A DNA stretch of 63,898 bases, counting the filler, from Psammoneis japonica (Eukaryota): the NCBI GenBank assembly GCA_008632985.1. It is 3 parts of 3 records of this genome, joined end to end, with 100 filler letters (N's around TTAATTAATTAA, not from the genome) between each part and the next. Parts side by side here need not be neighbours in the genome. Positions count along the whole stretch, not along the records: positions 1 to 25,087 come from QPGO01000427.1; positions 25,188 to 49,361 come from QPGO01000431.1; 1 more part is not named here. One strand, given 5' to 3'. The position numbers and the translations under genes are program-made. This document shows positions 1 to 49,476 of the stretch, piece after piece. Numbering within the stretch: the stretch's first letter is position 1; every line of letters starts with the position of its first letter. The notes under the pieces were generated by a model. That model worked only from the letters and a program-made list of their open reading frames with translations. It had not been told where the DNA came from and made no database searches.

Positions 1-1050
1 CACACCATTTCCCACCAGACGTACTCGTATTCGGTTTGGTACCCCAAATGTCACACATTTTGATTGAAGCGTAGCGAGTGGAATCGGTTTTGCCATTGCT
101 TGGCGTGCACAGATTTTGGACAAGCGGTATGCTTTTCGGCTCCTACGGTATTTTTGCTGGGACAGAAAATTAAACCTTTCAAGAGTAACACCTGGTGAAC
201 CGAACTTTATTCGTTGCCGTTTTGTTTGTTTCGTATGCTGGCAGGGCTCTAGAGTAGAGCCCTTCGGTCTTCGGTCGACTTTTCAAAGTTCGTGGCACGT
301 ACGATCTCGTGTTGAATAGAAGTAGGGCCTAGCTAGTTGCTTCTCTGGCCTTGTGCTCTCGTCTCCACACATCTCGACAAAAGCGCTGTAGAGTCATTAC
401 GTAGAAATTGTGTAGGACAGTACCAAGACAAGTCTGTCTGTCTGTCCTTAGTGAATTTTAACTTTGCGAAAAATGGATTTGACTGTTTTCTGATCAGGTG
501 TATTTTTCTTCAACACATTTGCAAAAATACACCTGACCCGATAACAGTCAAGTCTATTTTTGCACAAATTGTGTAAACATAACAGTTTCAGTACAAAAAC
601 GTGTAGATTCTACAGGCGTCCCTAATTATTTTATGCTTTCTACGTCACGGGTCATTTTCAAAAGATTCCTATTGAGTCACGATTAGTCTACCGGCGGTAG
701 AGGCCATAGGAGAGGCTAAAAAAATCGCACATGACATGGACAGCAATGTCCAATGAGTGAGTAGAAAAACGCGATCAATAAGTGCATCATATGCATTTAT
801 TAGTGTTTTTATGTAGCACATTACATGTCCCATGACTCGAGCGCATTCATGGTTTTGTCTTGAAAAGCGAATGATTTAGCTCGTCGTGGAATTCCACGCA
901 GTCTAGTACTGCCAGGCTCCCGCAGCTATCCGCCACGCGGTTGTTTTCGCCAATCGTTCAATCTCACTTCTTGCGCTTTTCTCACAATTCCTGCATCGCG
1001 ACCCCGCAACAGCAACTATCTGCTAAGTGTTTGCATTTGCCTTTTCCACC

Positions 1051-7960: not shown

Positions 7961-8136
7961 CACACAGCTGTGGGTGGGGACGCCGTAAAAATCACGTAGA
8001 GACGAATTTTCTTGGATCGAAACGAGAGTTACCTTAGTCGATAGAGGGTGTTACGGCGGTCTTAAAATGGGGGGTAACTTTTTCATTTGCCTTGTATTCG
8101 TCGATAACGAGATCGATGAAGTGACCGCCATTTTCC

Positions 8137-13387: not shown

Positions 13388-13559
13388 TGAGCAGAGTATG
13401 GAAATCGCGTAGAGGGGAGTGGGACACCATAAACTCTTGGTAAAGTACAGCAAGCAAATATCGTTATATGCTACCATTCTGTCTGTTTCTTTGGTCTCAT
13501 CTCGATCATGCACAATAAAGAAATCGAGCAATGACAATGAAGGGTCGTCGTACCGCTTC

Positions 13560-14198
13560 TTGCATCTTTTTTCCCAAAGGCCGTGGCCGTTCCACCTGAC
13601 TGAATGCCTAGAGACATTGAAAAAAGTTTGCAGTCGCTTAAGGTATATCACTATCGGGATCTCGAAAGATAAGCTTGGTGCCGCCTACGAATCCCAGAAT
13701 GTTAAACAAGACGATGGACTCGCATTTTGTGAGACGGTCAATGTTCTCGAACTTGATCTTTCCCCAGCCGACGCCATAGCCAGCGCCAAGTACAGCCCCC
13801 TTTGTGTTGCCCTTAAGGTGGTAAACCTTTCCTTTGTAGTTGAACTTGATGGAGACCCCTGACCCAACTTCCAACTTGGCCTTGACTTTGTGGCGTTTGG
13901 ATTTCCACCACTTGAATTTCTTGCCTCCACGGGGAATTGCTGCTACTACTGCCGCCGCATCTGTGTGATCAAAGGACTTGAAACTAAATGCATGGATGTT
14001 TTGACGTTTGAAGAATGCGGCTTGCGACATGGACACGCCGGCAAGCACCAAGAGCGAAATCTGCACAGATACGTTCGAGCAGCAAGATGAGAGGTTCTCT
14101 CCAACTCTCATACAGTTCATCAGATTCTTGAAACTTGGAACACTTGCTCGCAAAAGAGAGATCACACGCACGGTGGTCGTTGTAGGCGTGCTTATCAT
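13560..14198 (-). pseudogene. Secreted protein with a VapA/VapB-like beta-barrel, probably pseudogenised
   Basis: Hydrophobic leader ISLLVLAGVSMSQAAF (probable intron after MISTPTTTT) and a diatom-type AIPRGG motif. LKGNTKGAVLGAGYGVGWGKIKFENIDRL...LIFRD resembles the Vap Gly-rich strands. Stop at 13638 followed by a frameshift. Confidence 0.4.
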
Positions 14199-14564
14199 GA
14201 ATCTTTCGACAAAGCTAGAGAATAGGCTTCTCGGATAATGATGCTTTTGCCAAGGGGTTCACTCTTCATAGCGGAGCTAGATCAGAATCGGGAGCTATTT
14301 GATCCCGAGTCGGAGTTGCACCTGAAGTAGCGCTATCTTTGGAAGGTGATAGCTCTAGAAAATGCATGGGTAGGACCAAAAGACGGGATTCAGTAGTGCC
14401 TGCTTCCAGTGCCGGTATTTAGGTGGCGCGCCCAAACAAAATAACACGGTGTTTCCTCGTGAACACTTGTTTTCGTATGGGAGGAAAGAGTGCTATTCAT
14501 AAGCCGCGCCTGCATAGTTGCACCTAACAAATACTGTTGCGAAAAGAGCGTGCGTAAAATAATA

Positions 14565-15130
14565 TGCCTTATTGTTTACTGTATGAATGACAAGGTAACT
14601 TTGAATCGGAGCCGAAGCGTCCATGACTTCAAACCTCATCGCTCAAAAGTGGCTGACGCCAGTTATACCCCTATTCCCTTATTCTAATCACCATTCGAAA
14701 TCCAGCCCATGTCTCTAAAGACCAGAGCCACCTTTTCGGGAAGGAGTCATGCCAAACGAAAACGCATCTTCATTGACAACAGACATGAGGCTCTCACGCT
14801 AATTCTCGTCAATGGCACAAAAGTACTCGTCAACAATCTTGACATCTAAGATATAGTGAATGCGCTTTATTGTTTACTATAGATGATAAGATAACTATGA
14901 ATTAGATCCGAAGTGTCCTTGACTTCAAACCTCATCGCTCGAGAGCGGCTAAAGCTCTACCCACATCCCCATTCCCCTACTCTAACAACCTTTCGACAAC
15001 CAGCCCATGTTTCTAGAGACCAGAGCCAAAGTTGAAGTGCTGAAAAGGGTCGTCGCGCTACGTTGGCATCAGGCATGAGGCTCTCAGACTCATTTTCGTC
15101 AATTGCACCGAAGCGCTTGGCAAGACGCTC
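14565..15130. repeat. Diverged tandem duplication, ~295-bp period
   Basis: TTATTGTTTACT...GACTTCAAACCTCATCGCTC...CAGCCCATGT...GACCAGAGCCA occurs at ~14568-14730 and ~14866-15028. Confidence 0.8.
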
Positions 15131-15494
15131 GAACTCTTCCATGGCAATCTTGTATCTTGTGCCGAGTCGCTCTCCAGCAGCAAGGATGCTTTCCAAGGCT
15201 CTCATCACCTTGAGAATTTCAACGTCATTGACTTCTTGTACAGAGCAAATGGCTTCCAGGGCACGCTGAATTAACCCCGCTCCCGGTGTGCATCGCGCAC
15301 GATGCACACGGGAAATTCAGAAAATCGCCCAAAATCGCTGACGTGCATCGTGGGCGATGCACGTGACGTCTTTTTTTGCACTACTTTATCGCTAAAACTT
15401 GTCTCTTCAAGAGCCTCCGTTAATAAATATCAACACGTCCTCGTCTTCTACTACGCTTGACGTGCTTTATGTTGTTTTTCTAGGGTTTGATTGG

Positions 15495-15617
15495 CTCAGC
15501 TCGTCCTCCAATAATTGTTTCATTGACTACCACTCGGAAAGTACGCGACAACAACACGATAACAAGGCGCGAAAACTTCCGACCGCGTTGTACTGTCTAG
15601 AAACATTTCCGGGTTAG
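15495..15617 (+). repeat. Dispersed repeat (TpA-retaining copy) homologous to 42408-42527
   Basis: TTGACTACCACTCGGAAAGTACGCGAC...GGCGCGAAAACTTCCGACC here, versus TTGACTGCCACTCAGAAAGCATGCAAC...GGCGCAAAACTTTCTGACC at ~42437. Confidence 0.7.
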
Positions 15618-16184
15618 GGAAGCAAATCCGGGTAATTATGGCGATTTCACACGTAGAAAAGACGTAGAAACCTACTTAGTGCATCGCCCAAAGTGCACAC
15701 GCGTAGAAGCTACGCAAGTTTTACCGCCATAAACACCCAATGTTTGCATGTCAGCTTCGATAAGAACGGTTGAACTTGGCGCATGCCCTCACCCCACTTC
15801 TGGATTCGATGGTGTGCGATGCCGATCTCATCTGGGACTGGGCCAAGGACCGCCTTGCCAAGAACCACTGAGAAGCAACTCGGCATTAGAGCGCTTGGAA
15901 GTCTCATAGAGCAGAGTTTTTGGCAACACTCTACTCCGCACTGGGGGGGGGGGGTGGGTGAACCCACACCCTCCGCAGGGTCTCGAGTGAAACTCGAGGG
16001 CTCGAGGTTTGGTTCATCGGACCACACTCCGGGCGCTTCCGAACAAACCTGGTGGGGGGCACCTTCGGCATTGCGCGACGTCGGCACCCCAAACTGAGGG
16101 ATTCTCGAACTCGGAATAGAAGAGGACGCCAGACACCATTTGTTTGCCTTCGCAGTTGGGCGTCATTGCGGACATGCTGGGACC

Positions 16185-16975
16185 GACGCGCTCCAGCTCC
16201 AGGTGGGACCTCGCACTGCTGCACTGTGACATCAATGGTTTTTTGGATCGCGTCGTGTGTCGCGCACATGCATTTCTACGTGCAAAATTCTACGAAATTG
16301 TTTCACACTTCCTGTTTTGCGAAGCCAACGTGTTCCAGGTCCAGGTGGGACCTCGCACTGCTGAACTGTGACATCGACAGTTTTTTGAGTCTCGTCGTAT
16401 GTCGCGCACATAGATTTCTACGTGATTTTTTCGACATTTTGTGTCATTTTACGGTGCACTCATTGAGCGATCCATCCAACAACTTTTGACATTTTTTGTT
16501 GCAGCGCGATTCTATGATGTCTTAAGAATCGCGCAGGGCAGGCGAAGTTGCAAAAACGTCAAGTGGTGAGAGGCATAATTGCACCACAAACTTGGGCATT
16601 TATTTGATGTTGAAGACAAATGCATCCATTGATTAAATTCTCGCACTACGGAGCTCGCACGCAGAATTCTGCGGGCCCAATGTCACACGGAGTCCCACCC
16701 AGGGCTGGAACGCGTCAGCCAAAGGCTTTCCATTTTCAACATTTGTGAGAATGACAATGCGCTGGGTGCATTCTTTAATGTCTGAAGAACACACCCGGGC
16801 AAACTGTCAATGATGTGCTCCAAGTGTGAAGGAAGAGATGCGTTCGTAAAATTGCCTCTTTTTCTGTTGGTGATCACTCACATTTTCATTGCAGCACAAA
16901 TTTGCTACGGAGCTCGCACGCAGAATTCTGCGGGCCCAATGTCACACGGAGTCCCACCCAGGACTGGAACCCGTC
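16185..16975 (+). mobile_element. MITE family 1, subfamily A, TSD GACC; contains a nested copy
   Basis: Ends GACGCGCTCCAGCTCCAGGTGGGAC and GTCCCACCCAGGACTGGAACCCGTC. The empty site is visible in the paralogous repeat at ~17670. Confidence 0.9.
16327..16716 (+). mobile_element. MITE family 1, subfamily B, nested in a subfamily A copy, TSD AGCC
   Basis: Same TIRs; AGCC at 16323-16326 and 16717-16720. Confidence 0.9.
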
Positions 16976-17829
16976 GACCGAAAGAAACCGATCTAGACTT
17001 CATCGATGGACTCCCGCGGTCTGATTGACAAAGGTGAGCACAAATCCAGGGAGTGGTGGGTGGGCAGCAAAAATGGCTTTTCCAATGCTTTGGCATGGTC
17101 CAGTCACGTTGATCAGGGTTCCTGTCTCAACAAAGATGGAAAAGTGAGAAACAGGATGCCGGCAAGTTTGACCGGTCACAGAAACCGGTCATCTTGGCCC
17201 AGAGGCACCCTCCTCTGGGAGAGGCACATGTCGATGGTCTGACCAGATGAGAGGTCTTGCTTCGCACGGTTCGTCTCCATCCAAACTTGGGTGCGAAGAG
17301 GATTCGATGGTGTGCGATGCCGATCTCATCTGGGACTGGGCCAAGGACTGCCTTGCCAAGAACCACTGAGAAGCAACTCGGCATTAGAGCACTTGGAAGT
17401 CTCGTGGAGCAGAGTTTTCGGCAACACTCTGCTCCGTGCCAGGGGGGTTGGGCAAACCCATGCCCTCCACAGGGTCTCGAGCAAAACTCGAGGGCTCGAG
17501 GATTGGTTCATCGGACCATGCTCCGGGCGCTTCCGAACGAACCTGGTGGGGGGCACCTTCGGCATTGCGTGACGTCAGTGCCCCGAACCAAGGGATTCTC
17601 GAACTCGGAATGGAAGAGGACGCCAGACGCCATTTGTTTGCCTTCGTAGTTGGGCGTTGTCGCGGACATGGGACCGAAAGAAACCGATCTAGACTTTGGC
17701 GATAGACTCCCGCGGTCTGATCGACAAAGGTGAGCACAAATCCCCCCCGATGAGAACTCCCAGGCAGTGGCCACCCGCAGAGACTAGCTCGCACCAAACA
17801 CACCCTGAGGGTGTGATCGAGCCGGTCTT

Positions 17830-19700
17830 ACATTTCCTGAGTGCATCTCAAGAAGCAAGGGAGGAGGAGAGAGATGTCTGCGCAGTGTTGCCTCATCTTA
17901 TGAGACGGCCTCATCCCTCCAGCTCGATCCTTCTTTTTCCACCGATTCACCACGTCAATGTCGTCCTCCGACACATTTCGAGTGATGGCTCTAGAGACGT
18001 GTTCCAGCTCTAGGTGGGACCTCGCACTGCTGAACTGTGACATAATTATTTTTTATCATCCGTCGCATGTTTCGCACGTGCATTTCTACGTGTTCCATTA
18101 TAAAAAATTGTTCCACACTGCCTGTTTTGCGAAGCCAAAGGCTTTCTGTCATCTGCACTTGTGTCAATAAAAATGCGCTGGGTGCATTCTTTAATGTCTA
18201 AAGAACACACCCGGGCATGCTGCAAAGAATGTACTTCAAGTGTGGAGGAGGAGATACGTTCGCAAAATTGCCTCTTTTTCTGTTGGCGATCATTCATACA
18301 TCCATTGCTTGACAATTTTACTACGGAGCTCGCACGTAGAATTCTACGGGCCCAATGTCACAAAAAGTCCCACCTGGGACTGGAACCCGTCTAGAATCCG
18401 ACCCGCGCCGGAAAGACCTGCTGACATCGTGCTTGTCCTCAATGTCCGAATGAGAGGTGATGTCTGCCCCAAAGAGGGACGGGTGGTCGTCAAAAAGCTC
18501 TGAGAGGGAGAGGTGAAAAAGCACATTTGGGTCATGAGAGGACAAGACCTTTCCACTGTCATCCGACATGGCTGGTCCTCGAGTGCGACCCCTTGAAGCT
18601 TGAAAGGTCACAACTGCCTGGACCCACTGTTGAAGGCGAACACCTGATCCCGCGACGTTTGCACTCGGAAGCAGGTGTTGGCACTCCCCGTGTTCTCCCT
18701 TCACTCGACCGAGAAGCGGGATCACCACGTGGGATTGATGGAGAGGCAGGTGTTCCCGCATGGTGCCCAGATCCATGAGCAAGCCTTCGGGCCCACGGAG
18801 GGACAACGTGAAACTTGCCGCGAAGTGCAGGCCGCCAGTCAAGTGCCTGAGGCAATCCCCGGCTGCGGTGGCCCGGTTGAACTTTTCTTCGATCCTGGGC
18901 AGAAGGTGTTGCATGATCTGCGCCGAGATGGCCCTGTCTGGTCTCCAATCTTGCCCCATGCGCCTTTTGCAACCTGTCACAAACCTTTGGAACCAGAGGG
19001 AAGCGCAAGGGTCCTTGCAAATGCGGAGATGTTGTTTGCCCTCAAGGTCGGCAAGAGCCAAGGCTCGCGAGTTTGCAGAAGCCGAAGATCTCACCTGATT
19101 CGAGTGGGCAGTGCGCAACTTCCTGACAGTGTCGAACTGGGTGCACGCGTCAGAGCAGCGGCCCGGGGACGTCGAGGCCAAGACCATCTGCATCGCCGCC
19201 TCATGTCCACAATGATCAAAAGACGGCAGAGGTCCTGGCTCCAAGTGAGGTCCTTGGAGTCCTGAACGCTCTGAGAGAACCAAACCCCGGGTGACTTTGG
19301 ATGCATTGTTCTCTGCCGTGGAGGTCTCTCCACTCCAGAAGGCGTCCAGGTTCACCCGCCTGATGCAAGCCAACGCCACCTCGTTGCGTGGTGAGGTGGG
19401 GAAGGGGTCTCTCTGGCACAGCTTGTGGAAGATGCACCCATCGCACTCGAAAGCCACCATCAGATGGTCCCCGGTTCGCGCGCGTGTGAACTTGTCCTTG
19501 TCCTGTGGCTTCCAAAACCAGGTGTTGTCCTCGATCCGAGCGGCGTCCTCACCGGGAAGGTCCTCGTCGTTGTTTCATTGGTCGAGGTGGAGGATCCCCC
19601 CCAGGTGGAACATCACGTTTTTGCTTGAAGTGTGGCACCCGGGACACCACGCCTTTCGGCACGCGGGCCAGCCCCCGACACTGTGAACAAAATTTGCGCA
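17830..19700 (-). pseudogene. Tyrosine recombinase of the YR retrotransposon, split by a MITE
   Basis: LSLRGPEGL (box I R-x-x-E), IPLLGRVKGE, and SRSFRRGSDSR|AITRNVSEDDIDVVNRW (box II) once MITE 17996-18391 is removed. Upstream CRKAWCPGC and FECDGC Cys motifs. Confidence 0.85.
17996..18391 (+). mobile_element. MITE family 1, subfamily A, TSD TAGA, inserted in the recombinase gene
   Basis: TIRs present; removal restores GSDSRAI. This copy retains many TpA. Confidence 0.92.
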
Positions 19701-21869
19701 GAAGATCCCCTTCGTCCACTTCAGGGTCCTCCCACACTCTCCGCAGCGCCCGGTCCATTGAGCACATTTTTGGGGTGCCCCGGAGTTGCCACGGACTGCG
19801 CAGAACAAACGGAAAAACAAGGCCCACGAGCAAAGGTTCGAACATCTCATCGGGCCAGAAAGGCCCGGCCCCGGACGGAACTCGAAACACCAAGTCGGCT
19901 GCCTTGTGCAGTTGTTTGTGCCATTCAGGAGTCATCAGGCGGGGACACACGAAGACATGGAAAGAAGTCTGACGCTTGAGTCGGGCAATCCGCAGCTCCT
20001 CGAGTGCGTTCCTTGCTGCAGCCGGGGGCGGAGCCCAGACCCAGGTGCCAGAACAAAAGGTCGGCATTTCAACTGCTTCGTGGGGTGGGCAAAGCCACCC
20101 AGATGTGTCATGCCCCTTCTGATGCCAATCAAGCGGGGAGAGCAGATCGGCCGCAGGAGATCCGGCCCAAGACTGAATCCACCCCAGGAGAGGAGGAGCT
20201 CGGTCAGTTGCCGGCAGGTGCAGAGGGACAAACGAGAGCATCTTAGCTCCATTCACAATGCCTTCCGAGAGGACCCCTCCAGAAACTCCGTCCGCACCCT
20301 GGGCCATCATGCGACTCCCCGAAACATGGATCAAGTGAAACACAAACCCATGCTTGGCCTCCAGGACTCTGAGCCGTGCCACTTGTTCCAGGAGTTAAGG
20401 GTTGGAAGAAGTTCCCTTGTAGACGGTGATTTCCGAAACAGAGTTGTCCGTGAAGAAATGCAAAACAGCACGGTCGAGTTCTCCCGCCTCGGCCAGCTCC
20501 TGGATGGAGTCCACTGTGTTGGTTAGTTCCTTCCAGTTTGACGAGTTCGATTGGTCATCATCGCCCCAAACACCAATCCCAAACACTGTCACCCCGTCCT
20601 TCGTTTCTGCCGAGGATCTGAGTCCCTTTCCAGATGCGTCCACAAACCCACACAAGACCACCACGACCTTAGAGGACCTGATTACCCTGGTGGTTGGTTT
20701 CTCAGGCTCCAGGATCCGCTGCAGAGCATTCAGATCCAACCGGAGTCGCGGACCGCGCGAACAGACTCGGGGTGCCTCGCGTCGTGCTGGATCCACACTG
20801 CATGTTCTTTGTTGGACACAGCCCATCCATCGGGATGACGGTTAGGGTGCCACCCATCCAAGGTCAAGTGAATTCCTTTGAGGAACGGGGCAATGAAAGG
20901 GCAGGTCATGGCCGCGTGCACTGAGTGTCCTCGTTTCCTTTCCAGATCCTTGAAATTGAACAGTGGGAGGGAGGAGGCAGGCAAGCCGTCGTAGAAGCTC
21001 AACAGGTCTGCGATCATCGTCTCACTCTTGTCCCACTTTGCTTGAGACAGGGATTGGGTGACGTCTCCCTCTGTCACCCGAAAGATCGCCCCGTCCCAGG
21101 CCCCGGTTTCGCGCTGAGATGGCGGGCGCACCTTCCGGGCCGCATTTTGGAGGCCAAGGCACTGGAGTCTCGATGCCATTTGATGACCCACTTGCCAAGC
21201 CTCTTCTTCGCTCGATCCCATGCCCCGCAAATCATTGATGAAAGTCTTGATGTCGCATGCGATGACCTCTTGACAGGAGTTCCACTTGGTCACCAGCGGG
21301 CTCTTCACATTGCAATCGGGGTCACCCGGCAGGTTCAACAGGACCTTGTCAAAGCCCATCGGGTTCCCCGACCGTCTCGGGTCCCCCCGGGCCACCTCGT
21401 CAGCCCAGTGGTGCGCACACACGGCCAGGTGAGGACTGGGTTTCATGCCCATGAAGAGGCGGTTCCACCTCTCCAGGCCCACAGGGGCCTGACCTGCCAA
21501 AGGTCTCGGCAAGTGGCCCCGCAGCAGGGTCAGGTCGATCCCGGCACAAGGCCGAATGCGGGGGTCCATGAAAAAGTTAAGAAACACATCGGCCAAATCC
21601 AAGTCAACAGAGAAGGTGGATGGGGTCATGCAGCCAAGTGCTGAGGATGCAGTCGGGAGGAAAAATGAAGGAGCCCACAGAGCGTCGTTGAGTCCCGACA
21701 AGGTCCCATTGTAGACCGTGCGAATGTCTTCCACGACCTCCTCCACTCCTCCATCGCCCCTCAGTTGCAGAGACACCGCCTCAGGGACCCAAAAGCAGTC
21801 GGTGAGGCTGGACACAGGCCCCGCCTCGATGCAACCGTGATCCCAGACCTTCTGGAGTTTTGTCGCCAT
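19700..21869 (-). pseudogene. Reverse transcriptase and RNase H of the YR retrotransposon (frameshifted)
   Basis: RT: DIRTVYNGT-SGLND, VDLDLADVFLNF, MGMKPSP, TFINDLR (YxDD site). RNase H: GFVDASGKG, SSNWKEL, FFTDNSV, LIHVSGSRMMAQGADGVS. Confidence 0.85.
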
Positions 21870-22208
21870 CCGCTGGATCTCATTGGACGTGCCGCGGATG
21901 CGTTGCCGCCGTCTGTTCCGCGGGAGGGTGGTCTGGACAAAGATCGGAATGCCGTCGTGTGGGCCCCATCCCGCTGCTCAGGAGAGGGCCAGTGCCAGAA
22001 GAAAAGTGAGGACCCCGGGTCCCAACTCCATCAATCAAGACCTCTGTTCCCAAGTTGGCGTCCAACAACAGGGAGGGAAGTGGTGGGTCCCGGTGCAAAC
22101 CCCCCTGCAGACTCGCAACAGAGTCCCCAAACCGTCGCCGAAGTTGTGCAAGATGGACCATCCACCCTGGACCACAACCCCGACGCAGGAAACTCAAGAG
22201 CGACCGCG

Positions 22209-23276
22209 TCAAGCGCCGCCGCCACCACCGGTGAGCCAACCCGCGCAGGGCCGGGAGCACCGGCTCGAACATGGGAAACAAAAGAGTGACACGCTTGTCC
22301 CAAAGGCGACAGAGTCCCCTTTTGCAGCCTTGGCAGCAATCAGAGACAAGTCGATCCAATCATGGGACAAATGCCGACCCAGTTGCGGCAGCCATGTGGC
22401 CCAAGGACCAGAAACCGGAAGCTCAGGAGACCGTGCAGCCGGGGGTGGCTCCGGCGGCAACCGGGAGCTGGAGCGTTGTAGGATGAAACCATCCGTCACC
22501 GTGTGGAGAAGATTTGAGGGAACCAGCTGAGTGAGGGCGTCCCCCCCCAACTGGTCCCGAACAGCTTGAGTGCGAAACCCAATGGGCAAATCCCACCCTG
22601 CGAGGAGTTCATCTCCCGTGAGAGTGTGGAGAATCCACCCCGTGGGTGAGCGATGGGACTGGCAAAGAACCCTCCGCCCCAAATGGTGGGGGTGCAACAA
22701 ATCGCACTCACGGTGCACACTCTCCCCAGGGTCTGGGGGACTAACCTGCCCCGCGCATTTGTGGTCAATGATGTGACCGATGGTCCGCTGCAGCCCATGA
22801 TCAAGATGTGGCAACTCGTCACCGATGCAGAAGAACGCAGTCCGGAAGGAAGTGACGCCTCCAACCCCCGAATGGGAAATGGCCGAATGAGGGAGGTGCT
22901 GGAGCCCCTTCAAAGCTCGTCTCGAAGCTCCCCCGACCGGGACCATGTGCGTTGGGCACGTGGTCCCCACCCGAGAAACTCTCTCCAAAACACCGGGAGG
23001 CCCCAAAACCAGGGCCAAATCTGAGCTCTCAAATGCATGAGACACCCCGGAGAATGGGATGCGCTGAAGCGATGCGCCCTCTTGCGACTCAAAAAGGGTG
23101 ACAAGCACCAAGTCCAAGGGTGATGGGACAGGATCAATCGAGCAAAGGACAACTCGAGGCCACTCGGAACAGCGGAGGGCCAAGAGCCAAATGGGGGGGG
23201 GGCCCAGAGATGACCAAACATGTCCCACGAAAGGCAAAGATTTTGCAACCGCGAATGGCATGCCCTGCATTCTCAT
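22209..23276 (-). pseudogene. Putative degenerate C5 cytosine DNA methyltransferase-like domain carried by the YR element
   Basis: DLALVLGPP (motif IV-like, no catalytic Cys), ISHSGVGGVTSFRTAFFCIG (motif VIII-like), LTGDELLAGWDLPIGF (motif IX-like) and LTQLVPSNLL (motif X-like), in canonical order. Confidence 0.45.
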
Positions 23277-23304
23277 TCACCTGTGGTTCGCCCCCCGCCT
23301 GGCT

Positions 23305-25087
23305 TCATTTCTTTGCCTCTAGGGCCTTCAGACGACGGTTCACCTCTTTCAACTCCGTTTTTAACTTGCTCACCTCTTGGTGTGCTGCATCGGCTCGCGC
23401 CTGCGCTGACTTCGCTTCCGTGCCCGCATTCTTGGCCTTGTCGGTTGGGGTTACAACCGTGGCCTGCAAGGCTGTCACCACTTCAAAACCCGAATTGGTG
23501 GCGAGAAACTTAACATGCTCCGACGCCATTGAGGGGTGGTCCTTAAAATTGTGCGCCGTGTGTTCACCCATCACGTCCTGGGACCTGAAAACTGCCCAAA
23601 GAATTTGACTGCACACCGCATCGGGGTCGGTCCCTGCGATCGAAGTGAAAAACCCCCGATCGAACCTGGTTGAGGTCGTCGAAGATGCGGTGCACCAGTT
23701 TTGACGTTAAGGACCAAGCCTGTTTCTGAGAAAATTTGCTCAACTGAACAAGATTTTCGCAGGTCTCGTCCATAAACTGCATCAGGGCCCGCACGAACGC
23801 CACGGACTTCAACAGAGCGTCTCGAACAACCTGGCTCTCAAAGGAACCACTCGGGATCCTCTGGGAAATGTCATTCAAAGCATTGCGTTTGATCGTGACG
23901 ATCCTTTACATGATGAAATGTTTTGCACCAGTGGAACCCGTCGTCCAATGGTCATGGGTTGACACCTTGTCCAGGAACAAGGGATGTGGCCCAGGTGACT
24001 GAGCTCCTTTCGCTGATCCCGAGTCGAGAATCCTCGGCATGCTGCATTGGAAACTGGCAAGTGTCCGTGCATCCTCTTCCGTGCTGATTTTCAAGTCCAT
24101 CCGTTTGGACAATCCAGCAAGGAAGTGATGCAGGGCGGCCGGCTCGGTGCCCGCAATTTGGTCCAACAACAAGTTAGTGTCCGTGAGGCACCCATGCGCT
24201 CTGGAGGAAAAATGCTGAACCATCCAGGCTTCGCATTCTGCGAATGAAGAAACGCCTGCACCCGAGAATTTGATGGCTGAAGATTCCGATTTTGATTTTA
24301 GCTCATTGACCGCCTGGCTGAGGTCTCGGATTTGACGATCGAGTGTCGCAAGAGGCGCGACTCCCGCTCCACTGGCCCCGCTGCCCAAGCTGGCGACTCC
24401 TCCACCCGATGCAGCGACGTTCTCCAATCTCTGTACTTTCGCCACTGGTTGGTTGCAGACTCTTGGGGTCCCCGCCCTCAGAGACTCTAGGTCGTGTTCA
24501 GGAGCAAACCCGGAGAGCTGGGTCTGGACCCTCTGCAGAGCTGCATTGAAACTTGACGCCAATCTGTTGGAACCGGCCCGAGCACTGCTTTCCAAGCGGG
24601 CCAACTCCGTAGAGAAATCCCGGGATTGGAGTGCTCCCGGACTGAGTGTCGACAGGTTGGCGAGCGTCCCCCAGATGGTCGGGGCTTCCACTTGCTGGTC
24701 GAGCTCAGACAGAGGGGTGCCAAGAGAGGCATCGAGCTGTTCCAATTTCTGACTCAACACATCAAGTGCCAAGTCCGAGTCCTTGAACCGAGAGCAGGCT
24801 TTGTTCCCCAACTCGACTAGAACTTGTCCCGTTTCCGACAAGTTTCGCTTGACCGACTGAACCACACGAGCTGGGGCCGCAGGACTCTTGTTTGCAGCAA
24901 GAAATTGGGACGGGGTGGTGGTGATGGCCCGCTGGCAAGGCTCGAACTGCCCAAACTGTGCCCCCGGGAACATGTCGCTCCCATGACACTTGGTTTTAGC
25001 TGGGGTTTTGCAGGCCGCAGCCTCTTTGTGCTGCTTTCAGGGACTCGCCAAACTGGTCCTCCATCGGGAACCACGACTCACTGTTTC
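23305..25087 (-). pseudogene. Gag-like ORF1 of the YR element (frameshifted, coiled-coil rich)
   Basis: Consecutive ORFs 23906-24973, 23564-23878 and 23305-23616 upstream of pol; C-terminal coiled coil. Confidence 0.6.
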
Positions 25088-25187
25088 NNNNNNNNNNNNN
25101 NNNNNNNNNNNNNNNNNNNNNNNNNNNNNNNTTAATTAATTAANNNNNNNNNNNNNNNNNNNNNNNNNNNNNNNNNNNNNNNNNNNN
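25088..25187. other. Assembly gap with artificial TTAATTAATTAA spacer
   Basis: N-run, TTAATTAATTAA (25132-25143), N-run. Confidence 0.95.
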
Positions 25188-25899
25188 CTTGCATGGAAAA
25201 CAGCAAACTGCCAAAACAAGTTGCTGCTGTGTGCTTCATCGCTGTCGTGCACACACCAACAACTGTTGTTCGCTGCTGCTGCTGCTGCTGCTTCCACACC
25301 ACAATGAAAAGGACTCCTTTTTTAAAAGCAAAAATGCAGTGTCTTAAAAAAGCACCTGTCAAGGTGATGTGTGTCACAGGCAACCACCAGCCATTTTGCA
25401 AAGTTCTCGCTCAAGAGTTTCAAGGTCAACAGGACCATTGTGTTGCCAAGAGTTGCAGCTGACGCCGCAACCCCCGCTGATGCCCCCCTCCTTTGTGTGT
25501 GTGATGTTTTTGTTTGATTTCTCAAATGGAGAGAAAATTGCAAGTCAACATGAGTGGCTGGACTTGCAGCAAAACAATGTTCAAACAACTCTTGGCTGGC
25601 TTTTTTAAAACTGCTCTTGTTGGACAAAGAGGGCAGTTTCATTTGATCCCAATGTGCAGGAGCATTGATGTCAGAGGAGTGATTCTACACACAAAAGAGC
25701 AGCAAAGAGCAAAGTCACTGCAGTGTTGTGCAACAGTGATTTTGCGCATTGCCAAAAATTTGTTGTGCACAGCATTGTTTCTCAACAAGAATGTGAGAAT
25801 GTCTGCTCAAGAGTTGTTTTGCACATTGTTTGTAACACAGCACACCACATTGCATCCTTTGTCAATCCTCCCACACCCCAGACACAAAAGAAAGCTGTG

Positions 25900-27110
25900 G
25901 CAACAACAAAGTCAGCCATGCCACTCTGGAGCCCCTCTGACTGCATTCATCTTGGCTTTTTGTGCACCTGCGCATGGTCCATGCGCTGCTTCATGGCAGA
26001 GGACAAGATGCTCTCCTCAACACCTTCCATGATGGCAATCTTGACCTTGCTGTCATTGCCATTGCGTGCAACAATTCAAATTCAACAAGGCTCCACAACC
26101 AGCTTTTTTGCACATCTGCGTGGTCTGCATGTTAAAAACTCATGGTGGGCACAATGCTTTCAATCCCTTCCACAGCAGCAGCAATCTTGACCCAGTTGTC
26201 ACCATTTGCACCAAACAAGTGCCTCAAGGCAGAGCAACCGGCTTGCTGCACACTCAGCACACCATGCTCCACTTGTTTGTTCATTGTGGATGCAATGCCC
26301 CCAATCCTTCCCATGGTGGCATTCTTGACCTTGTTGTCATCATTTTGCAGAGCCAAAATCCTCAAGGCTCAACAACAACCAGCTTCTTGCACACCCGCGT
26401 GTGTCAGTTCATGGTGGACACAATGCACCACCAGCCAACCCCTCCCACAATGACAATTTTGACAACCTGAGCAAATGAAGGGGCTTGTGATTTGAGCATT
26501 TTTATTTTGGACAAGACATGTTGGTTGATGAACTTGACTCATGTTCTCATGTTTGAGCTTGAGGTTTTGTGATTTGGGTTTGAGAGGTTTTGAGCTTTGG
26601 ACAACAAGGCAGAGCAGCACTCAAAGAATTGAACTTGTGGAAGATTTTGCAAATCTCCTTTGGCCATTTCAGGCCACATCATTCTTTCTCCTTGTTGCAC
26701 AAAATTGTCTGAGAGCACCTGGGCATCAACAACAGAAGATTCTCAATTCCCCACACTGCTGCATCTGCAGTGGTGGGGGGTTGCCTTGGTCAAATGGGTG
26801 GTGCTCAAATGTGATTCTTCTGGTGGAGGCAACAGAAAGGCTGGCTCTCCAATCCAAAGATTGAAACATCCACGTGAACTTGCAGCACCATCAGAACATG
26901 ATGCTTGCACTGTCTTTCAGCATCAAATGCAAGCACAGGAGCTGCAAATGGGGGCATGAGGCAGTTGTGCCAAGCAGCGCCAATTGTCAAGCCCTTTCCA
27001 ACTGTGATGCTCACTCCAACACCCATTTTCAACAATTTTGCAAAGATTGCAGCAGATTTCCAACACATGCCAACAACGATCAGCACCGCCAAGGTCTTGC
27101 ACACTCAAAC
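25900..27110 (-). pseudogene. Armadillo-repeat pseudogene, possibly with an upstream U-box-like domain, inside a TpA-depleted block
   Basis: Repeated VQEAGCC.ALRILALQNDDNKVK..., VQQAGCSALRHL...NWVKIAAAVEGIESIVPTM and VQKAGCGALLNL. Upstream TLAVLIVVGMCWKSAAI...ITVGKGL is weakly U-box-like. Confidence 0.6.
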
Positions 27111-29008
27111 AGCACATCGAAGCTTTGCTGCTGCTTGTTCCTTTTTCCCATGACTCCTGGCATGCTTCACCCACTGCCCGTGCTTGTGTTGCCAATGTTT
27201 TCTTGCTGCAGCCCTGGCTTTTGGCTTTCCTTCTTTGAGCTCGCTCACTGTTCTTTAACAAGGGTTTTGGGCAAATTTTCAAAGTTTGACTCAGGGCTCA
27301 ACATGCAGTCTTCCCAGCAACTGCAACAAAAATCCATTTGGGCTCCACTCAACTGAGTGCTGATTGTCCCCAGCTCCTCACATTCTAACACTCAGTTGTC
27401 AGTGTCCTGCACATTTTTAGAAACATTGCTCCCCCAACCACTGTTGATGCTGCTGCAATTTAAAGGATGCTTGTTCTGCCTTGAGGGACCTCTCTCTTCT
27501 GCTCTTGTCATTTTCTTTTCAGTTGTGGGCTGTGCATTGCAAAGCCAGAAAAAACTGACAAAAGTGTCAACTTCCTCACAAAATCACTCACTCAAATGCC
27601 AGCACTTTGAAAATCTTGTCCCTGTCTCTGACGCCTGTGGCTTTGGCATCCAGGCAAGTTGTGGGTGCATCATTTCAAAACCAGAACAAGAAGGGCCTGT
27701 GGTGCAGTTTTTTTTTGGCGCTGGTCTCTGCACTGTTTTTGCAACATGACAACTGATGTGCACACTTGCCTTTCTCAGTGCTGGCTTTGCAAATGCAGAG
27801 CTTCAATCAACAGAACATTCAGCACTTTCCCAGCAACTGGACTCTTCTTGCCTTGCACATTGGGGTGCAAATGAGCAGATGTCCACAGGTTGGGTTTTGC
27901 TGGAGTCATTTAAAATGCTCGAATGACGGAATGCACAAAACTGGCAAATGGTTTGTCAAAGGTGTTCGTGATGAATGCATGGATCTTGAGTCCATTGGGA
28001 TTCAAAGTCAAGAAGAAGGTGCCAGACTGATGGGTCCATCTGAGTCAGGGCACAATCATCTGGTGGTCCACCGCATCTCACATGGTTTTGCTTTCACAGT
28101 CTTCATCTTTGAATTTTTAAGCACAATCAGAATGAAAATTCACAAACTGTTGGTGCAAAATTTCCCACATGCTGGGGCCATCAATGCCAGCATCAGTCTT
28201 GGCATTTCCCACTCTTTGATGTCTGTCACTTTGACAAACAATGAGTTCCACCCACATGTTTGAAGGAGTGCAAGTGCTCACAAGATGAACAACTGTGCTG
28301 AAGCATGATGAAAGAGAAATCACCTTTGTCACACAAATGTCAAGAAGAGCGGCTGTGTGCAAGGATTCCAGATGGAAAATGACTCATGTGCAGCAAGCAT
28401 GATTCTTTGTGAAAGATCACGGCAGGAAAATTTCGAAGAAGACCACAAGCGTTTCAAGCACAGGAGTGATGAGAATGGGAAAGATCTTCTGTTGCACCTA
28501 CATTGCATGAGGTGCCACCCTAGCTGGCTCTAACTAGCTAGGCTGGGCGGTGGTCATGTAGCCTTCTGCTGGCTCGTAGTCGTTCTAAATAATGATGTGC
28601 TCAGAAAAAGAATTGACATGTGCTGCATTTGCGTTGACTGTTTTCCGTACTTCTGCATTGTTCTATAAGGGAGACGCGGTTTCTCGCAAATCGAACCCCT
28701 CTGTTGGACTGCACTGCTGCTAGCGAGACGGTGTGATTTCTCCTGGAGAGAAAGTCAGTGTCAGCCAATGATGATAGTCACCAAGAATACCCTCATTCAT
28801 CTAGACATATTCACAAAAAAATTCTCTTCTACTACGGCCATCCTAAGCGACTACTCCTTCTCCCCGGCACAACCCATTCCGCGAACCGACCTTGTTCTCA
28901 CGACTGGAATAATGTACATCGCACTTACTCTTACAAGTCCTCCATTGATTTTGATTGAATCTCTATTGACTTGTGTAAGAAATACATTGCATGAGCTTCT
29001 TCCCATCA

Positions 29009-30142
29009 TCACGCCAACAGGGAGGCTCGACGCGTAAGGATGGATTGGATTGCCAATCGACAAACGTCAGTCTTACATGCTAGTTCCTTTAAGTCTTGCA
29101 AAATCTCATAATCTGCACGGTAGAACTGTGCAAGACATTGTTTAGCCTTGGGTGATAGAGGAGCATGATACTTGTCGGTTGTAACGGAAGAATGAAGTCT
29201 CGACGGGGACGTGCGAGGGGCATTGTTCCTCTTCTGCTTGCAATCCATTTGAACAACATTGGCTTGTCGCGAAGCAAAGTCAGACGCATTGAAGAATCTT
29301 GTATGATTATGGATCCAACGAACCGCATCATCAATTTGAGCATAATAGTCAAAATTCTCCTCCAGCACAACTGGCATAATGGACGGTGCTGCTGTTTTCC
29401 ACCAGTCGATTCCCAACCAATCCTCTATGGAGAATCGAGCGTGTACAATTTGTTTCAAATCCATCCTGGCGTCCGCCTCAGTAGAATCATTGCAAAGGGC
29501 TTCTGCCAAGAGGTTTGCATTTTGCTCATACTTGTCAAAAATAATTTCCTGCTCGGCACGCACACGAGAATGATTCTGACAATGCGTGTAGGGACCGCCT
29601 GCTGGATAACCCGGTTCGCGATCATCGCCGTGTGGATTGCAGAGGACAAGGTCTCGCCAATAAAAGGCCGAAACAAAGCGATCGATCGGATCTCGAATTG
29701 TAATGACAAATAATGCAGCCGTATCGGACACCAAGCGCTTGGTACAAGGAGTCGGATGACATTCTCTGGGTTTGATCCGCCATGCACGAGTTGTTCGGTC
29801 TCGAAATGTACCGCCTCCGGCTTTTCCAATGTGCAACAGCATGAATTTATCTCTTGATAGAGATATCATCTGTATATTACTGAGTGATTTCTCCTTTTTT
29901 GAGGACTGTGAGGTACATTCTGCGCTGAGATCGTTTTGGATTAATGACGTGGTTTCATTATTGTGTTGCGAAAAAGGTGCGATCTTTTTCTGCACCAGCT
30001 CATGGTGTTGTAATTTGCTCCTCGGATCCGACAGGATAACAAGCACACAATAAGCAACTAGAGCAACTGGAGCCACTGAAAGGAAAACTGGTCTTGTCAT
30101 TGTCATGGCGTTTGATGTGTATCGGCAGCGGATCGTCATCAT
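29009..30142 (-). CDS. Golgi-type carbohydrate sulfotransferase (Sulfotransfer_2-like), type II membrane protein
   Basis: N-terminal TM anchor; 5'-PSB motif LLHIGKAGGGTF; 3'-PB motif IRDPIDRFVSAFYW; C-terminal FYRADYEIL. ORF is intact. Confidence 0.85.
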   Translation of the reverse strand: MMTIRCRYTSNAMTMTRPVFLSVAPVALVAYCVLVILSDPRSKLQHHELVQKKIAPFSQHNNETTSLIQNDLSAECTSQSSKKEKSLSNIQMISLSRDKFMLLHIGKAGGGTFRDRTTRAWRIKPRECHPTPCTKRLVSDTAALFVITIRDPIDRFVSAFYWRDLVLCNPHGDDREPGYPAGGPYTHCQNHSRVRAEQEIIFDKYEQNANLLAEALCNDSTEADARMDLKQIVHARFSIEDWLGIDWWKTAAPSIMPVVLEENFDYYAQIDDAVRWIHNHTRFFNASDFASRQANVVQMDCKQKRNNAPRTSPSRLHSSVTTDKYHAPLSPKAKQCLAQFYRADYEILQDLKELACKTDVCRLAIQSILTRRASLLA

Positions 30143-30389: not shown

Positions 30390-32800
30390 ACTAGGATGAT
30401 TGTTGTGAAAGTGGTTAACCCTGAAACTTGCACTGGTCTCTGGTGCAAGTGCACCGATGAACCTCTCCCATTTGGCACACTCAGCAGATTCAGTCCAGGT
30501 GGCTCATGGTTTGGTGAAAGACTTCTGACTGAGTGCTGGTCATTGCCAGTTGGCAGTTGCTCTCCACTTGCACTCTGCCTGAGGCATTGGTCTGGATTCC
30601 ACATCCAGTCAGTGCATTGTGGGAAGAGGCGCACTCGGCAGGAGCTCCATGGGCACGTGCAAGCACTTCGGCTGGTCGGCTCGCCCAACTGGGGCAAATT
30701 AACACATTCTGTGCTTCCGCATGGGGACACCCAGACCAGTGCAACCATCCATGGATCTGATGCTGTCATTGCTGCCCTCCATCCATGCTCCGTGCTTTTG
30801 ATGTCAAGCACTGGTGTGCCTGACTCTGTCAGCCGAACAGCTGGCTCCACCAGAAGGTGTGTTGTTGATTTTGCATGTGCACCATCTCAGGCCCTGCTCC
30901 ACCCATGGCCCACCTGAGGCCCAAGAGAGTTCTCTGAGCTTGTGTCCTTTGATTGAGAATGTCCCAAATGATTGGCCCAACTCAACAGCTTCAAGCGTGC
31001 TGTCGGACATGGCTGACTGCCCCGAGATCTTCGTGGACCAGCCTCCCAAGGATCAACCTCCGCCAGAGGACAATCCACCCCCTCAGGACCCCCATGATTC
31101 AGATGACAAGTCCATTCCAGCTTCAGGGCCCCACCTGGATGCTGAGGACAACTCAGATGATGAGTCCATTGCAGGAGATGGCACAACAATGGCCGACGAA
31201 CGTTGCTCTCTTCAAGCCATGGCTGCAATGGCAGTGGGGCAGTGATGCCAAAGACCAAAGTCCACAAGCCCAAGGCTCCCAAGACAAAGGGAGTTGTCTC
31301 TGTTGAAGCTGCTGAAAAGGTGGCTTGGACTGGCAGGAAACCCAAGACTGACTTCAAGTGTTGGGGTCTCTTCACAGAATTCAATGGCGTGGACACATCC
31401 ATCAATGTGATGATTCTGTCTTGTTTGCCTGCCATGGATGCATTGACTGGGTCCTCTGTTTGCATGGTTGGCTGCAACCTGCTGCAGATGAGGTCAACTC
31501 TGATTTCATGGCTGCTCCTGTTCCTGTTGACTTGACTTCTCAATTGTGCTCTGGCACAGGGGGTCCTGTGAAAGGCACACCCAAGCATCATGAATTGGCA
31601 GGAAAGCACAGGGTTTTGGGCATTGCACTCTTCTTTGTGAGTTGTCACATGCTTGCATGATTTGTTGTCTCAAGATTGACTCTGCCATCACTGCACTCTC
31701 CAAGTTCAAGTTGCACCCAGCTCCCATCTGTTGCACGGCATTGAAAGGCGTTGCCAAGTGCCTCCGATGCACAGAGAACTGGGACATCAGCTGTTGCAAG
31801 CCATCCAAGGACACTTGTTTGCCACCGCACTCACATGAGTGACTTGTCTCTGATGACTCCTTGCTTCCTTTCCTGACCCTGGACTCCCTGTCTCAGCTGC
31901 TTGCTTTTTGGACACGGCTTGTGGTGATGACCTTCACAACCATCACTCAACTGCTGGCCATGTGTGTGTCTTGGCTGGCGCCACCACAGCATGTTGATGC
32001 AAGACAGAGACAGTGATCACCACACCAGCTTGACAGAAGCAGAGTTCTGTGCTGCTGGCACTGCCACCAAGCTTGTTTTGCATCTTCACTTGGTTCTTTG
32101 AGAGCTCAGTTTCATCAAGATGACCCTGTTGTTCATTGACAACAAACTGCAGCCATCAAGATCATCATCAATCAAATTCTGACCAAGTGCTCCTGCCACA
32201 TTGGCATCCAGTGGTGTGCTTTTTAGGACTGGAAGGATGATGCAAGGCATGTTGTCACATGACATTGTGTCACTGGCAATGTCAGCCTGAGTGATGACCT
32301 CACCAAGGCTCCTGGCTCAACACTCCATGCCCGCCATGCCCATGAGATGATGGGACATTTCTTTCACTGATTTGTTGTTGCTGGCATCTGCAGAGTTGCC
32401 CTCATTGTTTCATGTTGTTTGAATCCTGCCTCCCTGGAGTCATCTGGTCTGTTTTTTGTGCCCCTTTGGTTGACTGTTTGTCCTCCCTTTTTTCTTGTTT
32501 GGTGATCTGCGTCATCTTTTCCTGGACATGTCAGATCACAGGGGAGGGTGTCAACCCACCCTGCAGAGGCATGTGGGGGCAGACTGTGCATGGATGATGG
32601 TCAGACCATTTGTGAGATTTTCTCTCACTTGTTTCTTGCTGGCACATGTGTTGTCCACTGTCACCAGTTTGCAGGGAGCTCTTTGGCATGTTGCTCATGC
32701 CATTGGCATTCTGTCAGGATCATGCTGGCACTTCTGCCTGTCACAATGTGCTGCACGTGAGAGATTTTTTCTGGGCAAAAAATGCTTTGATTGTCACCAA
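30390..32800 (+). mobile_element. Heavily degenerate copia LTR retrotransposon remnant (RT/RNase H, PPT, start of 3' LTR at 32549)
   Basis: TALKGVAKCLRCT (RT), HIGIQWC and SDDLTKA...LHARHA..MMGH (copia RNase H C-terminus). PPT GGGGAGGG is followed by TGTCA. Right boundary is approximate. Confidence 0.7.
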
Positions 32801-33422
32801 AATGTTGCACAACAGCATGGTGCATCAACAGCACTTCAGGAAGATGCACCTCAAAAGCAGAGCAGTGATGCCTCAACTTGATGCTTTTCATGCAATCTGT
32901 GACATCTGCTCAATTTATGATGGTGAGCAAAGTTCAGCAGCACCAAGGCAGGTTGTGGAGCAAATGTGCAATTTAGACTTGCACCCTTTTTTTTTTTTCA
33001 TGTTTGCCATCAGGCATTTTGTCATTGGCTTCTCTCATTGTGAATTTTCATTGGTGATTGTGCATTCCTGGCATCAAGCATGTCACAAGTGACAGCATGT
33101 CAAAGGTGTCTGGCAGTGCCATTGCTGTGAGTTGAACCCAAATTGGTGTGGTGGCATCTGTTGTTTGGCAAAGTAAAATGGTGAGCATGATTTGTGAGGA
33201 TGCTTCTTCTGCTTTGCAGTTTATGACTTGGACTGCTGAATGTCCAAGAAATTTTCTCATGGACTCCACTGTCTGTTTCTTGTGCCGTTGGTGCCACAGA
33301 ACATGTTTGTGAGTTGTTCAAAGCCAAGTTTGTTTGGTTGCATGTGTTTTGGGTGAAGCAAAATGGTGGCTGCTTGTGCCTCTTGTGAACTCATTTTTGT
33401 GCTTTGTGTTGTTCATGACCCA

Positions 33423-33662
33423 GATGTCAACATGCCACCCGCAAAAGAACTCCGGAGTGACAAATTTACGTAGAAGAGGCACCAGATCCCCAGTGGAAAC
33501 ACCAAACAACATTGTTTGACAACCCTGGTGCTGATTCTACACTGGATTCTACACAGTTTCTGGACATTCCGGACTTTTTTGGCAATTCTGCAGGGGCCCT
33601 GGTGCTGCTTCTGTGTAAATTTGGTTTTCCGGAGTTCTTTTGCGGGGTGGCATGCTGCATCC
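33423..33662. mobile_element. Fold-back/MITE family 2 with ~65-bp imperfect TIRs
   Basis: CATGCCACCCGCAAAAGAACTCCGGA..AAATTTACGTAGAAG..GCACCAG at 33431-33490 is the inverted complement of 33596-33654. Confidence 0.75.
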
Positions 33663-49461: not shown

Positions 49462-49476
49462 CCATTTTGCACCATC

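Follow-up and report, generated by a model that had tools for sequence, protein, structure and literature searches.

The window analysed here, meaning the whole 63,898-base stretch of Psammoneis japonica DNA (assembly GCA_008632985.1), carries several mobile elements and blocks of DNA that have lost nearly all of their TpA (TA) dinucleotides, and the loss of TA in these elements is the subject of this report. The window is composed of three contig pieces, with the same artificial spacer (44 N, TTAATTAATTAA, 44 N) inserted at each of the two junctions, so that features spanning a spacer, including the region 18400-28400 singled out in a first-pass annotation of this DNA, are not contiguous in nature. 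Since that region crosses the first spacer, three of its TTAA tetramers (25133, 25137 and 25141) are spacer artefacts and were dropped from all counts. Throughout, TA sites are classed by the purine (R) or pyrimidine (Y) nature of their two flanks as RTAY, mixed or YTAR, with splits given in that order, and frequencies are expressed as observed/expected ratios (o/e). The features are as follows, with the strand where one was assigned; RT denotes reverse transcriptase, and A and B denote two families of miniature inverted-repeat transposable elements (MITEs).

1-10700, 12850-15850, 28500-30100 and 41000-42100: reference DNA of normal composition (TA o/e about 0.5-0.97)
10900-12600: block D1, depleted of TA and CpG (TA o/e 0.01-0.2, CG o/e 0.18-0.24; 4 residual TA, split 1/1/2)
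15802-18391: mosaic of MITE copies with unequal TA loss, from self-BLAST and alignments
17996-18391: TA-rich MITE A copy (17 TA, o/e 0.58)
18400-25087, minus strand: block D2, TA-depleted, an RT-like mobile element, running to the end of contig piece 1 (residual TA 1/9/17)
25088-25187: artificial contig linker, 44 N + TTAATTAATTAA + 44 N, source of the three spurious TTAA
25188-28300: block D3, depleted of TA and CpG, an unclassified repeat (TA o/e 0.03-0.13, CG 0.13-0.31, CA/TG about 1.8-2.0; 13 TA, 0/3/10)
30400-37350: block D4, depleted of TA and CpG (TA o/e 0-0.13, CG o/e 0.05-0.37; 22 TA, 0/13/9)
42300-49361, minus strand: block D5, TA-depleted, with Copia-1 and MITE A copies at 42528-42922 and 48991-49203 (53 TA, 9/28/16)
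43318-48520, minus strand: Copia-1, near full-length, with an RVT_2 match; tblastn to a 1,859-residue homologue spans its residues 1-1790
49362-49461: artificial contig linker, identical to that at 25088-25187
49462-63898: block D6, TA-depleted, with internal repeats, MITE B copies and Copia-2 (51 TA, 1/22/28)
50965-51357, 52848-53236, 60390-60776 and 63315-63704: MITE B copies within D6, from self-BLAST
57075-60231, plus strand: Copia-2, within D6

Together the six depleted blocks amount to 39,951 bases and contain 170 TA (o/e 0.073), compared with an o/e of 0.686 for the normal reference, in which 804 TA are found (RTAY 240, mixed 417, YTAR 147). Along the window, TA o/e falls to 0-0.15 at 10900-12600, 18400-28300, 30400-37350 and 42300-63898 versus 0.5-0.97 elsewhere, CA and TG are raised to 1.3-2.0 in the same stretches, and TG is about as frequent as CA in the depleted DNA. 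The depletion is confined to mobile elements, although blocks D1, D3 and D4 are unclassified as to element type. Its borders are sharp (for example 18391/18400), with depleted clusters adjoining normal genome. The left border near 18400 is the end of the TA-rich MITE A copy, the sister copies of which retain 3-5 TA; the contrast between a TA-rich copy and its depleted sisters indicates that hypermutation marks each copy separately, the TA-rich one being recent or having escaped targeting.

The direction of the change is given by proteins and by repeat copies. Conserved columns were scored in alignments of 71, 45 and 51 homologous proteins to three coding elements (the RT-like element of D2, Copia-1 and Copia-2). 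At the 73 conserved Tyr columns, only 8 Tyr remain, the others having become Cys (TGY, 38), His (CAY, 16), Arg (CGY, 4), Phe (6) or Trp (1), whereas other conserved residues are kept in 538/657, 376/470 and 241/306 columns of the three elements. The effect is seen in each element, with 1/11 Tyr kept in the D2 element (6 Cys, 1 His), 7/40 in Copia-1 (21 Cys, 8 His) and 0/22 in Copia-2 (11 Cys, 7 His, 4 Arg), and the overall Tyr survival of 8/73 (11%) equals the overall survival of TA (0.073/0.686, or 10.6%). Furthermore, in a single-step reconstruction of non-synonymous changes, A>G is preceded by T in 36/40 and 30/39 cases (66/79), alongside a separate class in the two Copia elements, C>T, which lies at CpG in 50/56 and 27/32 cases (77/88). 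Among the MITEs, the number of TA per copy varies widely within a family (17/5/3/5/4 in family A, 10/11/8/2/0 in family B) with CpG unchanged, and at single sites the copies differ, some carrying TA, some TG and some CA. From the polarisation at Tyr columns and the copy-specific TA, TG and CA states it follows that the change is real, took place after insertion, is specific to individual copies and runs from TA to TG or CA; it is not an artefact of base calling.

A side observation concerns the four Arg codons of Copia-2 (57688, 58066, 58501 and 58903), where 4 of the 22 conserved Tyr are now CGY and both bases of the TA have been converted. Such codons are not predicted by a strict one-hit TpA rule, and they suggest that CpA/TpG is also acted on, more weakly, or that ordinary transitions followed later.

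The TA that survive in the depleted blocks are a strongly biased sample. In the region 18400-28400, 43 TA are counted, 40 of them genuine after removal of the linker, and as strand-symmetric classes these comprise TTAA (14), TTAG/CTAA (10), CTAG (3), TTAC/GTAA (4), GTAG/CTAC (6), GTAC (1) and ATAA/TTAT (2), with none in ATAG, ATAC or ATAT. The resulting split of 1/12/27 departs from the expectation of a first-order Markov model of the region (7.5/19.6/12.8, p=5.5e-6), from that given by the flanks of the region's own TG and CA (8.9/20.6/10.5, p=1.1e-8) and from the NTAN shares of normal DNA (p=3e-15). The first-pass annotation had reported, by eye, that survivors here are mostly YTAR and that RTAY is nearly absent, which the count confirms; the seven sites that it gave as examples are as it described them (20396 TTAA, 20524 TTAG, 22742 CTAA, 23320 CTAG, 25323 TTAA, 27256 TTAA, 27911 TTAA), and so is the occasional occurrence of GTAG and TTAC next to the near absence of ATAT, ATAC and GTAC.

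The same bias extends across the six blocks, where the 170 TA split 12/76/82 against a Markov expectation of 33.7/84/52.3. The order RTAY < mixed < YTAR predicted in the first-pass annotation therefore holds, and the uniform depletion after correction for composition that it had named as the contrary outcome is not seen (over 10 tetramer classes, G is 150 with normal NTAN as the reference, p=9e-28, and 105 with the flanks of TG+CA, p=1e-18). At the extremes, ATAT accounts for 0/170 survivors versus 57/804 normal TA, and TTAA for 38/170 versus 37/804; the bias also explains the TTAA-rich residue that is left by scans on TA count alone. It persists when all repeat copies are removed (133 TA, 11/54/68, p=2.6e-17) and is present in five of the six blocks, the least depleted block, D5, containing 9 of the 12 RTAY survivors. 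The more depleted the DNA, the stronger the bias, in the manner of a dose-response: when 500-base tiles are sorted into six bins of TA o/e, from the least to the most depleted, the RTAY share runs.28,.30,.24,.06,.09 and 0, and the YTAR share.17,.20,.26,.42,.44 and.74.

These counts were fitted with a strand-symmetric, multiplicative model in which the two strands escape independently, with one factor for the base 3' of each strand's A. The relative survival by base 3' of TA is 2.0-2.4 for A, 1.5 for G, 0.9-1.0 for C and 0.3 for T (the ranges covering two references), and the model fits roughly (residual p 0.04-0.09).

In survivor context alone, the 3' neighbour of the A is indistinguishable from the -2 neighbour on the other strand, and it is the data on which strand was hit that separate them. 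At 26 asymmetric sites for which TA, TG and CA are all represented among repeat copies (triad sites), the majority of hits fell on the TAY strand at 21, on the TAR strand at 4 and on both equally at 1 (48 vs 11 when counted by copies; sign test p=0.0009), and triad sites of the CTAC/GTAG and TTAC/GTAA types nearly always end as TGC. Tyr codons, which are always TAY on the coding strand, likewise yield Cys more often than His (38 vs 16, p=0.004). In addition, bootstrapped product excesses over normal DNA favour ACAA over ATGA (95% confidence interval 11..43), GCAA over GTGA (4..32) and GCAG over GTGG (6..30), as well as ATGC over ACAC, with the products of ATAG and CTAA balanced. Since the strand-of-hit data are independent of the assumed ancestral distribution of NTAN, they support a role for the 3' neighbour of the converted A, with a 3' pyrimidine preferred, above all in TAC. 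At T|A sites that straddle two codons, which are few, all 5 with Y at +1 were hit, as were 3 of the 6 with R, a difference that is not significant (p=0.18). Were the -2 base the only one to matter, the triad-site and Cys/His results would have come out the other way round, and a model of that kind was rejected.

A division into purines and pyrimidines is too coarse for these data: TAC stands out clearly as hot, whereas TAG is slow and TAA is cold. Ranked by products, the 3' bases run C > T >= G ~ A, and ranked for loss by survivors T > C > G > A, the place of TAT being the point at which the two disagree. A further effect lies outside the tetramer. An A at +2 is found at 51% of survivors versus 28% of normal TA, and only A stands apart in the survivor/normal ratio at this position (A 1.78, C 0.85, G 0.74, T 0.53). 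Tyr codons followed by A are kept in 6/17 cases and other Tyr codons in 2/45 (p=0.004), so that the protection given by an A at +2 is of the same strength as that given by the +1 base. A typical survivor is a TnAn junction, for example TTTTAAAA.

The account of these observations that we consider probable is that the mobile elements were hypermutated at the DNA level after insertion, TpA becoming TpG or CpA at a rate set by the bases 3' of the A. On this account the depleted blocks are copies of mobile elements (the two Copia retrotransposons, the RT-like element, MITEs and unclassified repeats) in which A:T pairs were changed to G:C, each TA presumably being hit once and on one strand. The rate per strand would be fastest at TAC, also quick at TAT, slower at TAG and slowest at TAA, with further protection from an A two bases downstream. 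TA being self-complementary, a site would survive only if both strands escaped; because TA is its own reverse complement, RTAY, which offers a 3' pyrimidine on both strands, would vanish first, and TTAA, like TnAn junctions generally, would last longest.

Such a process matches the hypermutation that the main text of a recent preprint describes for Bigelowiella natans, which is specific to TpA and strikes viral and transposon DNA integrated in the genome (Mettrop et al., bioRxiv 10.64898/2026.01.13.699255). Of the 231 de novo mutations that its authors give for integrated viral DNA in mutation-accumulation lines, 230 are A>G or T>C, all at TpA; the elevated mutation rate is ongoing in culture, at about 1e-7 to 1e-6 per site per generation; and TpA-depleted coding sequences are enriched for RT and DDE domains. 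As far as that text describes it, the B. natans system shares with the window the change of TpA to TpG or CpA, the clustering of TpA depletion with CpA and TpG enrichment, and a normal genome alongside that is untouched, and its targets are likewise of foreign or mobile origin, here Copia-1, Copia-2, the RT-like element and MITEs. The depletion in the window, which is known from sequence alone, is far deeper (o/e about 0.07 vs a Rho of 0.45 for the B. natans region of nucleocytoplasmic large DNA virus origin, which has roughly 6,169 TpA sites). The words 'context', 'flanking' and 'trinucleotide' occur 0 times in the main text of the preprint, the figures and supplements of which lie outside this check and may contain an analysis of flanks. 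In a search of the literature for TpA-directed A>G hypermutation of transposons, this preprint was the only report found.

Fungal repeat-induced point mutation (RIP) is a comparable case, in which transitions at one dinucleotide are directed at mobile elements and leave sharply bordered blocks of altered composition, but of opposite sign: RIP changes C to T mostly at CpA and so makes TpA, whereas in the window TpA is down about 10-fold and CpA/TpG are in excess. As to the enzyme, the target A34 of TadA and of ADAT2-ADAT3 is preceded by U33 in every known substrate tRNA; bacterial TadA reads the U-A-C-G of tRNA-Arg, and the substrates of eukaryotic ADAT2/3 mostly have a purine at position 35. 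The 5' T before the target A in the window (36/40 and 30/39 of the A>G changes) resembles this requirement, and TAC as the hottest context resembles the U-A-C of tRNA-Arg, albeit as a preference and not a requirement. Unlike TadA, the process in the window has no preference for G at +2 (ratio 0.74), so that the G of loop position 36 is not mirrored. The engineered TadA variant ABE8e A48E is characterised in a review as YAC-preferring (PMC13109818), a preference that the hot TAC of the window also resembles, and amphioxus ADAT2 acting on DNA is reported to prefer GAA for A and TCG for C (PMC10354150). We infer that the lesion would be a deamination of adenine to hypoxanthine, by a TadA/ADAT-like deaminase reading 5'-T-A-Y, a reading that, by its analogy to tRNA editing, may serve as a reasonable lead and is not a finding. 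It is possible, but doubtful, that a dedicated DNA adenine deaminase of the tRNA-A34 (TadA/ADAT2) lineage still reads an anticodon-loop-like 5'-T-A-C/T, attacks both strands of transposon and viral DNA that has been silenced, and so provides a defence akin to RIP but with the reverse polarity, outside the published Bigelowiella strain. If so, the fingerprint TAC > TAT > TAG > TAA, with a protective A at +2, would be a direct biochemical assay by which to pick the enzyme.

Several observations weigh against parts of the hypermutation account. In the fitted model, CTAC/GTAG is in excess (34 observed vs 22-27 fitted), contributing to a residual misfit at p 0.04-0.09. The position of TAT is ambiguous: no ATAT survives (0/170), nor does any Tyr codon TAT (0/22 vs 8/40 for TAC, p=0.04), yet by strand of hit TAT ranks with TAG and lower than TAC (ATGC over ACAC), and 3 of the 4 exceptions among the triad sites involve ATA; an effect of A at -2 may be mixed into the TAT result. 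Thus, of the earlier claim that the preferred target is 5'-TAY-3', the preference for the TAY strand stands, and its purine/pyrimidine form is coarse, uncertain for TAT and silent on the +2 A. The claim that RTAY offers two chances of being hit and YTAR none fares similarly, in that the independent-strand model fits roughly, but the polarised Tyr codons have no two-chances effect (RTAY kept 5/32 vs YTAY 3/30) and their Cys:His ratio by preceding base (21:6 vs 17:10) lies in the predicted direction and is not significant (p=0.37). When A|G differences between repeat copies were counted unpolarised (n=655), the 5' base was C in 274, T in 122, A in 130 and G in 129, a count that left out TG-versus-CA sites and took in distant pairs and CpG decay, which dominated it. 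The normal reference consists of host non-coding DNA and not of the ancestors of the elements, and the data come from a single window, with 170 sites and a small number of elements, in which copies of a family share ancestry, so that copy counts are not independent. Nothing in the window bears on chemistry or enzyme, and the one ADAT2 reported as deaminating A in DNA prefers GAA (PMC10354150).

Among the alternatives, one retains the process and its context and moves the lesion to the opposite-strand thymine in 5'-R-T-A-3', for example by an enzymatic thymine modification that is misread or repaired to C. From sequence, a change of A to G cannot be distinguished from a change of T to C in the complementary strand, all of the context results read equally well as 5'-G/A-T-A, and nothing in the window counts against a thymine-directed lesion; we nonetheless think it unlikely. 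Thymine-modifying systems are not known to give T>C hypermutation. The B. natans preprint favours adenine deamination, in its main text by analogy to ADAT2 only (10.64898/2026.01.13.699255). It is quite improbable, by contrast with survival of the least favoured contexts, that nearly all TA were removed without regard to context and that the residual TA are new, having arisen by later C>T at CA/TG with TCA>TTA favoured and ACA>ATA avoided. Residual TA do amount to only about 2% of CA+TG sites (170 vs 8,006 strand instances), and the strongest enrichments, T at -1 and A at +1, are those expected from a TC>TT bias. However, with equal numbers of parameters such a creation model has a log-likelihood of -425.2 versus -419.8 for survival, and it works only with the rate at ACA set to zero. 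At the conserved Tyr columns, each of the 8 TA belongs to a codon for the ancestral Tyr, and 0 of 143 conserved His, Cys, Gln or Trp columns have turned into Tyr or stop, where about 3 would be expected under re-creation. The flank bias is moreover already present in partly depleted tiles, contrary to re-creation, which also leaves the strand-of-hit bias unexplained. The use of host non-coding DNA as the ancestral reference leaves room for the argument that the rate does not depend on context at all, the elements either never having had RTAY, through coding constraint or composition, or keeping their survivors by selection, for example as stop codons or signals. This is very unlikely: ancestral GTAC, ATAC and ATAA that sister copies have lost are seen in the TA-rich MITE copy and at the triad sites, the blocks' own TG+CA flanks give the same result as reference, and the strand-of-hit asymmetry is independent of composition; and since the elements are riddled with Tyr>Cys/His changes, selection on them is improbable.

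For ADAR, a 5' A is acceptable and a 3' G is preferred. Editing of repeat-derived double-stranded RNA by an ADAR-like enzyme, fixed into DNA by reverse transcription, would share with the window the change of A to G and the 5' U/T preference, and three of the classified elements do encode reverse transcriptases; yet MITEs, with terminal inverted repeats and no RT, are affected too, and both strands are hit within one element, as seen from Cys and His outcomes together and from TG being about equal to CA. The 5' T is near-obligatory (66/79), and G at +1 is protective instead of favoured. These differences from ADAR, together with the integrated DNA viruses that are the targets in B. natans according to the main text of the preprint, the Discussion of which mentions the 5' U preference of ADAR (bioRxiv 10.64898/2026.01.13.699255), make RNA editing highly improbable. 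There is next to no probability that the pattern is an artefact of assembly or of base calling at a modified base, an idea that would draw on the occurrence of the window's DNA in only one public run: TA, TG and CA occur in identical flanks across copies of one MITE, which excludes a context-driven miscall, the contigs of run X1 match D2 with 0 differences, although X1 may be the window's own source, and the protein-level pattern of Tyr>Cys/His also argues against it.

For DNA-level hypermutation at TpA, the process itself is already in print, and what is new in the window is a deeply scarred example, from an organism with proteins absent from the databases searched, together with a quantified flank fingerprint. 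The first report of foreign DNA being hypermutated at TpA dates from 2026, and the sole enzyme candidate for it, an ADAT2 homologue, is proposed by analogy. The flank preference provides an in vitro test for a candidate enzyme (fast conversion at TAC, slow at TAA and TnAn, protection by an A at +2, and strands that act independently), is directly checkable on the published de novo mutations, and is accompanied by a simple protein-level marker of TpA hypermutation, the replacement of conserved Tyr by Cys or His. The window also suggests that such hypermutation may occur beyond the one strain studied so far.

With regard to the elements themselves, homologue alignments to the RT-like element of D2 span 19621-23219 on the minus strand, and there are zero TA from 18378 to 20243. 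Its open reading frame (ORF) of 379 residues (20730-21869, minus strand) has 2,380 relatives at E<=0.001 in a library of 1.84 billion proteins, typically of 1,200-1,330 residues, and carries RT-like Atlas features, which serve as a lead only. Pfam gave no match for five ORFs of the element, even at E<=10, nor for five full-length relatives of 1,200-1,330 residues, and the RT-like polyprotein family may, judging from these sequences, represent an uncatalogued retroelement lineage.

D2 keeps its CpG (o/e about 0.7-0.8). In D1, D3 and D4, CpG o/e is 0.05-0.3 alongside the loss of TpA, so that nearly every pyrimidine-purine step there is TG or CA. A second and separable process, probably decay of methyl-CpG, acts on some elements only.

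The two MITE families are about 390-400 bases long, with common termini GTTCCAG...GGGAC and the inverse, and occupy 15802-18391, 42528-42922, 48991-49875, 50965-51357, 52848-53236, 60390-60776 and 63315-63704. MITE A is interrupted by a nested insertion of MITE B at 16328/16717. The summed contig depth of run X1 over the MITE stretches reaches 84,880, versus about 25-130 for unique DNA, which implies thousands of copies; exact-pattern scans for the conserved MITE core gave 0 loci in genome_contigs, metagenome_contigs and viral_contigs.

The DNA looks eukaryotic by its Copia-type reverse transcriptase, its MITE-like repeats with terminal inverted repeats and its CpG-depleted blocks. In public sequencing data it appears in run X1 and in two runs of the same sample, as contigs only, with no RNA run listed; the X1 contigs show two depth classes. 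Scanning the window for Rfam families and tRNAs returned no match, rRNA included, and Pfam searches with 39 ORFs from the normal regions gave only two sub-threshold, chance-level matches. A 414-residue sulfotransferase-like ORF in the normal DNA has a best database match of 44% identity, and its named matches, at 34-40%, are diatom or MMETSP proteins; with a best match this distant, the ORF is probably not part of the annotated proteome of the B. natans strain. A single N is present at 63311. At 39407-40790 lies a G-rich (about 45% G), coding-like tandem array, left out of the reference set, which has nested periods of 18/36/60/96/156 bases and is glycine-rich in a plus-strand frame; its TA level is normal, and the dinucleotide AT is absent over about 1 kb (o/e 0.0).

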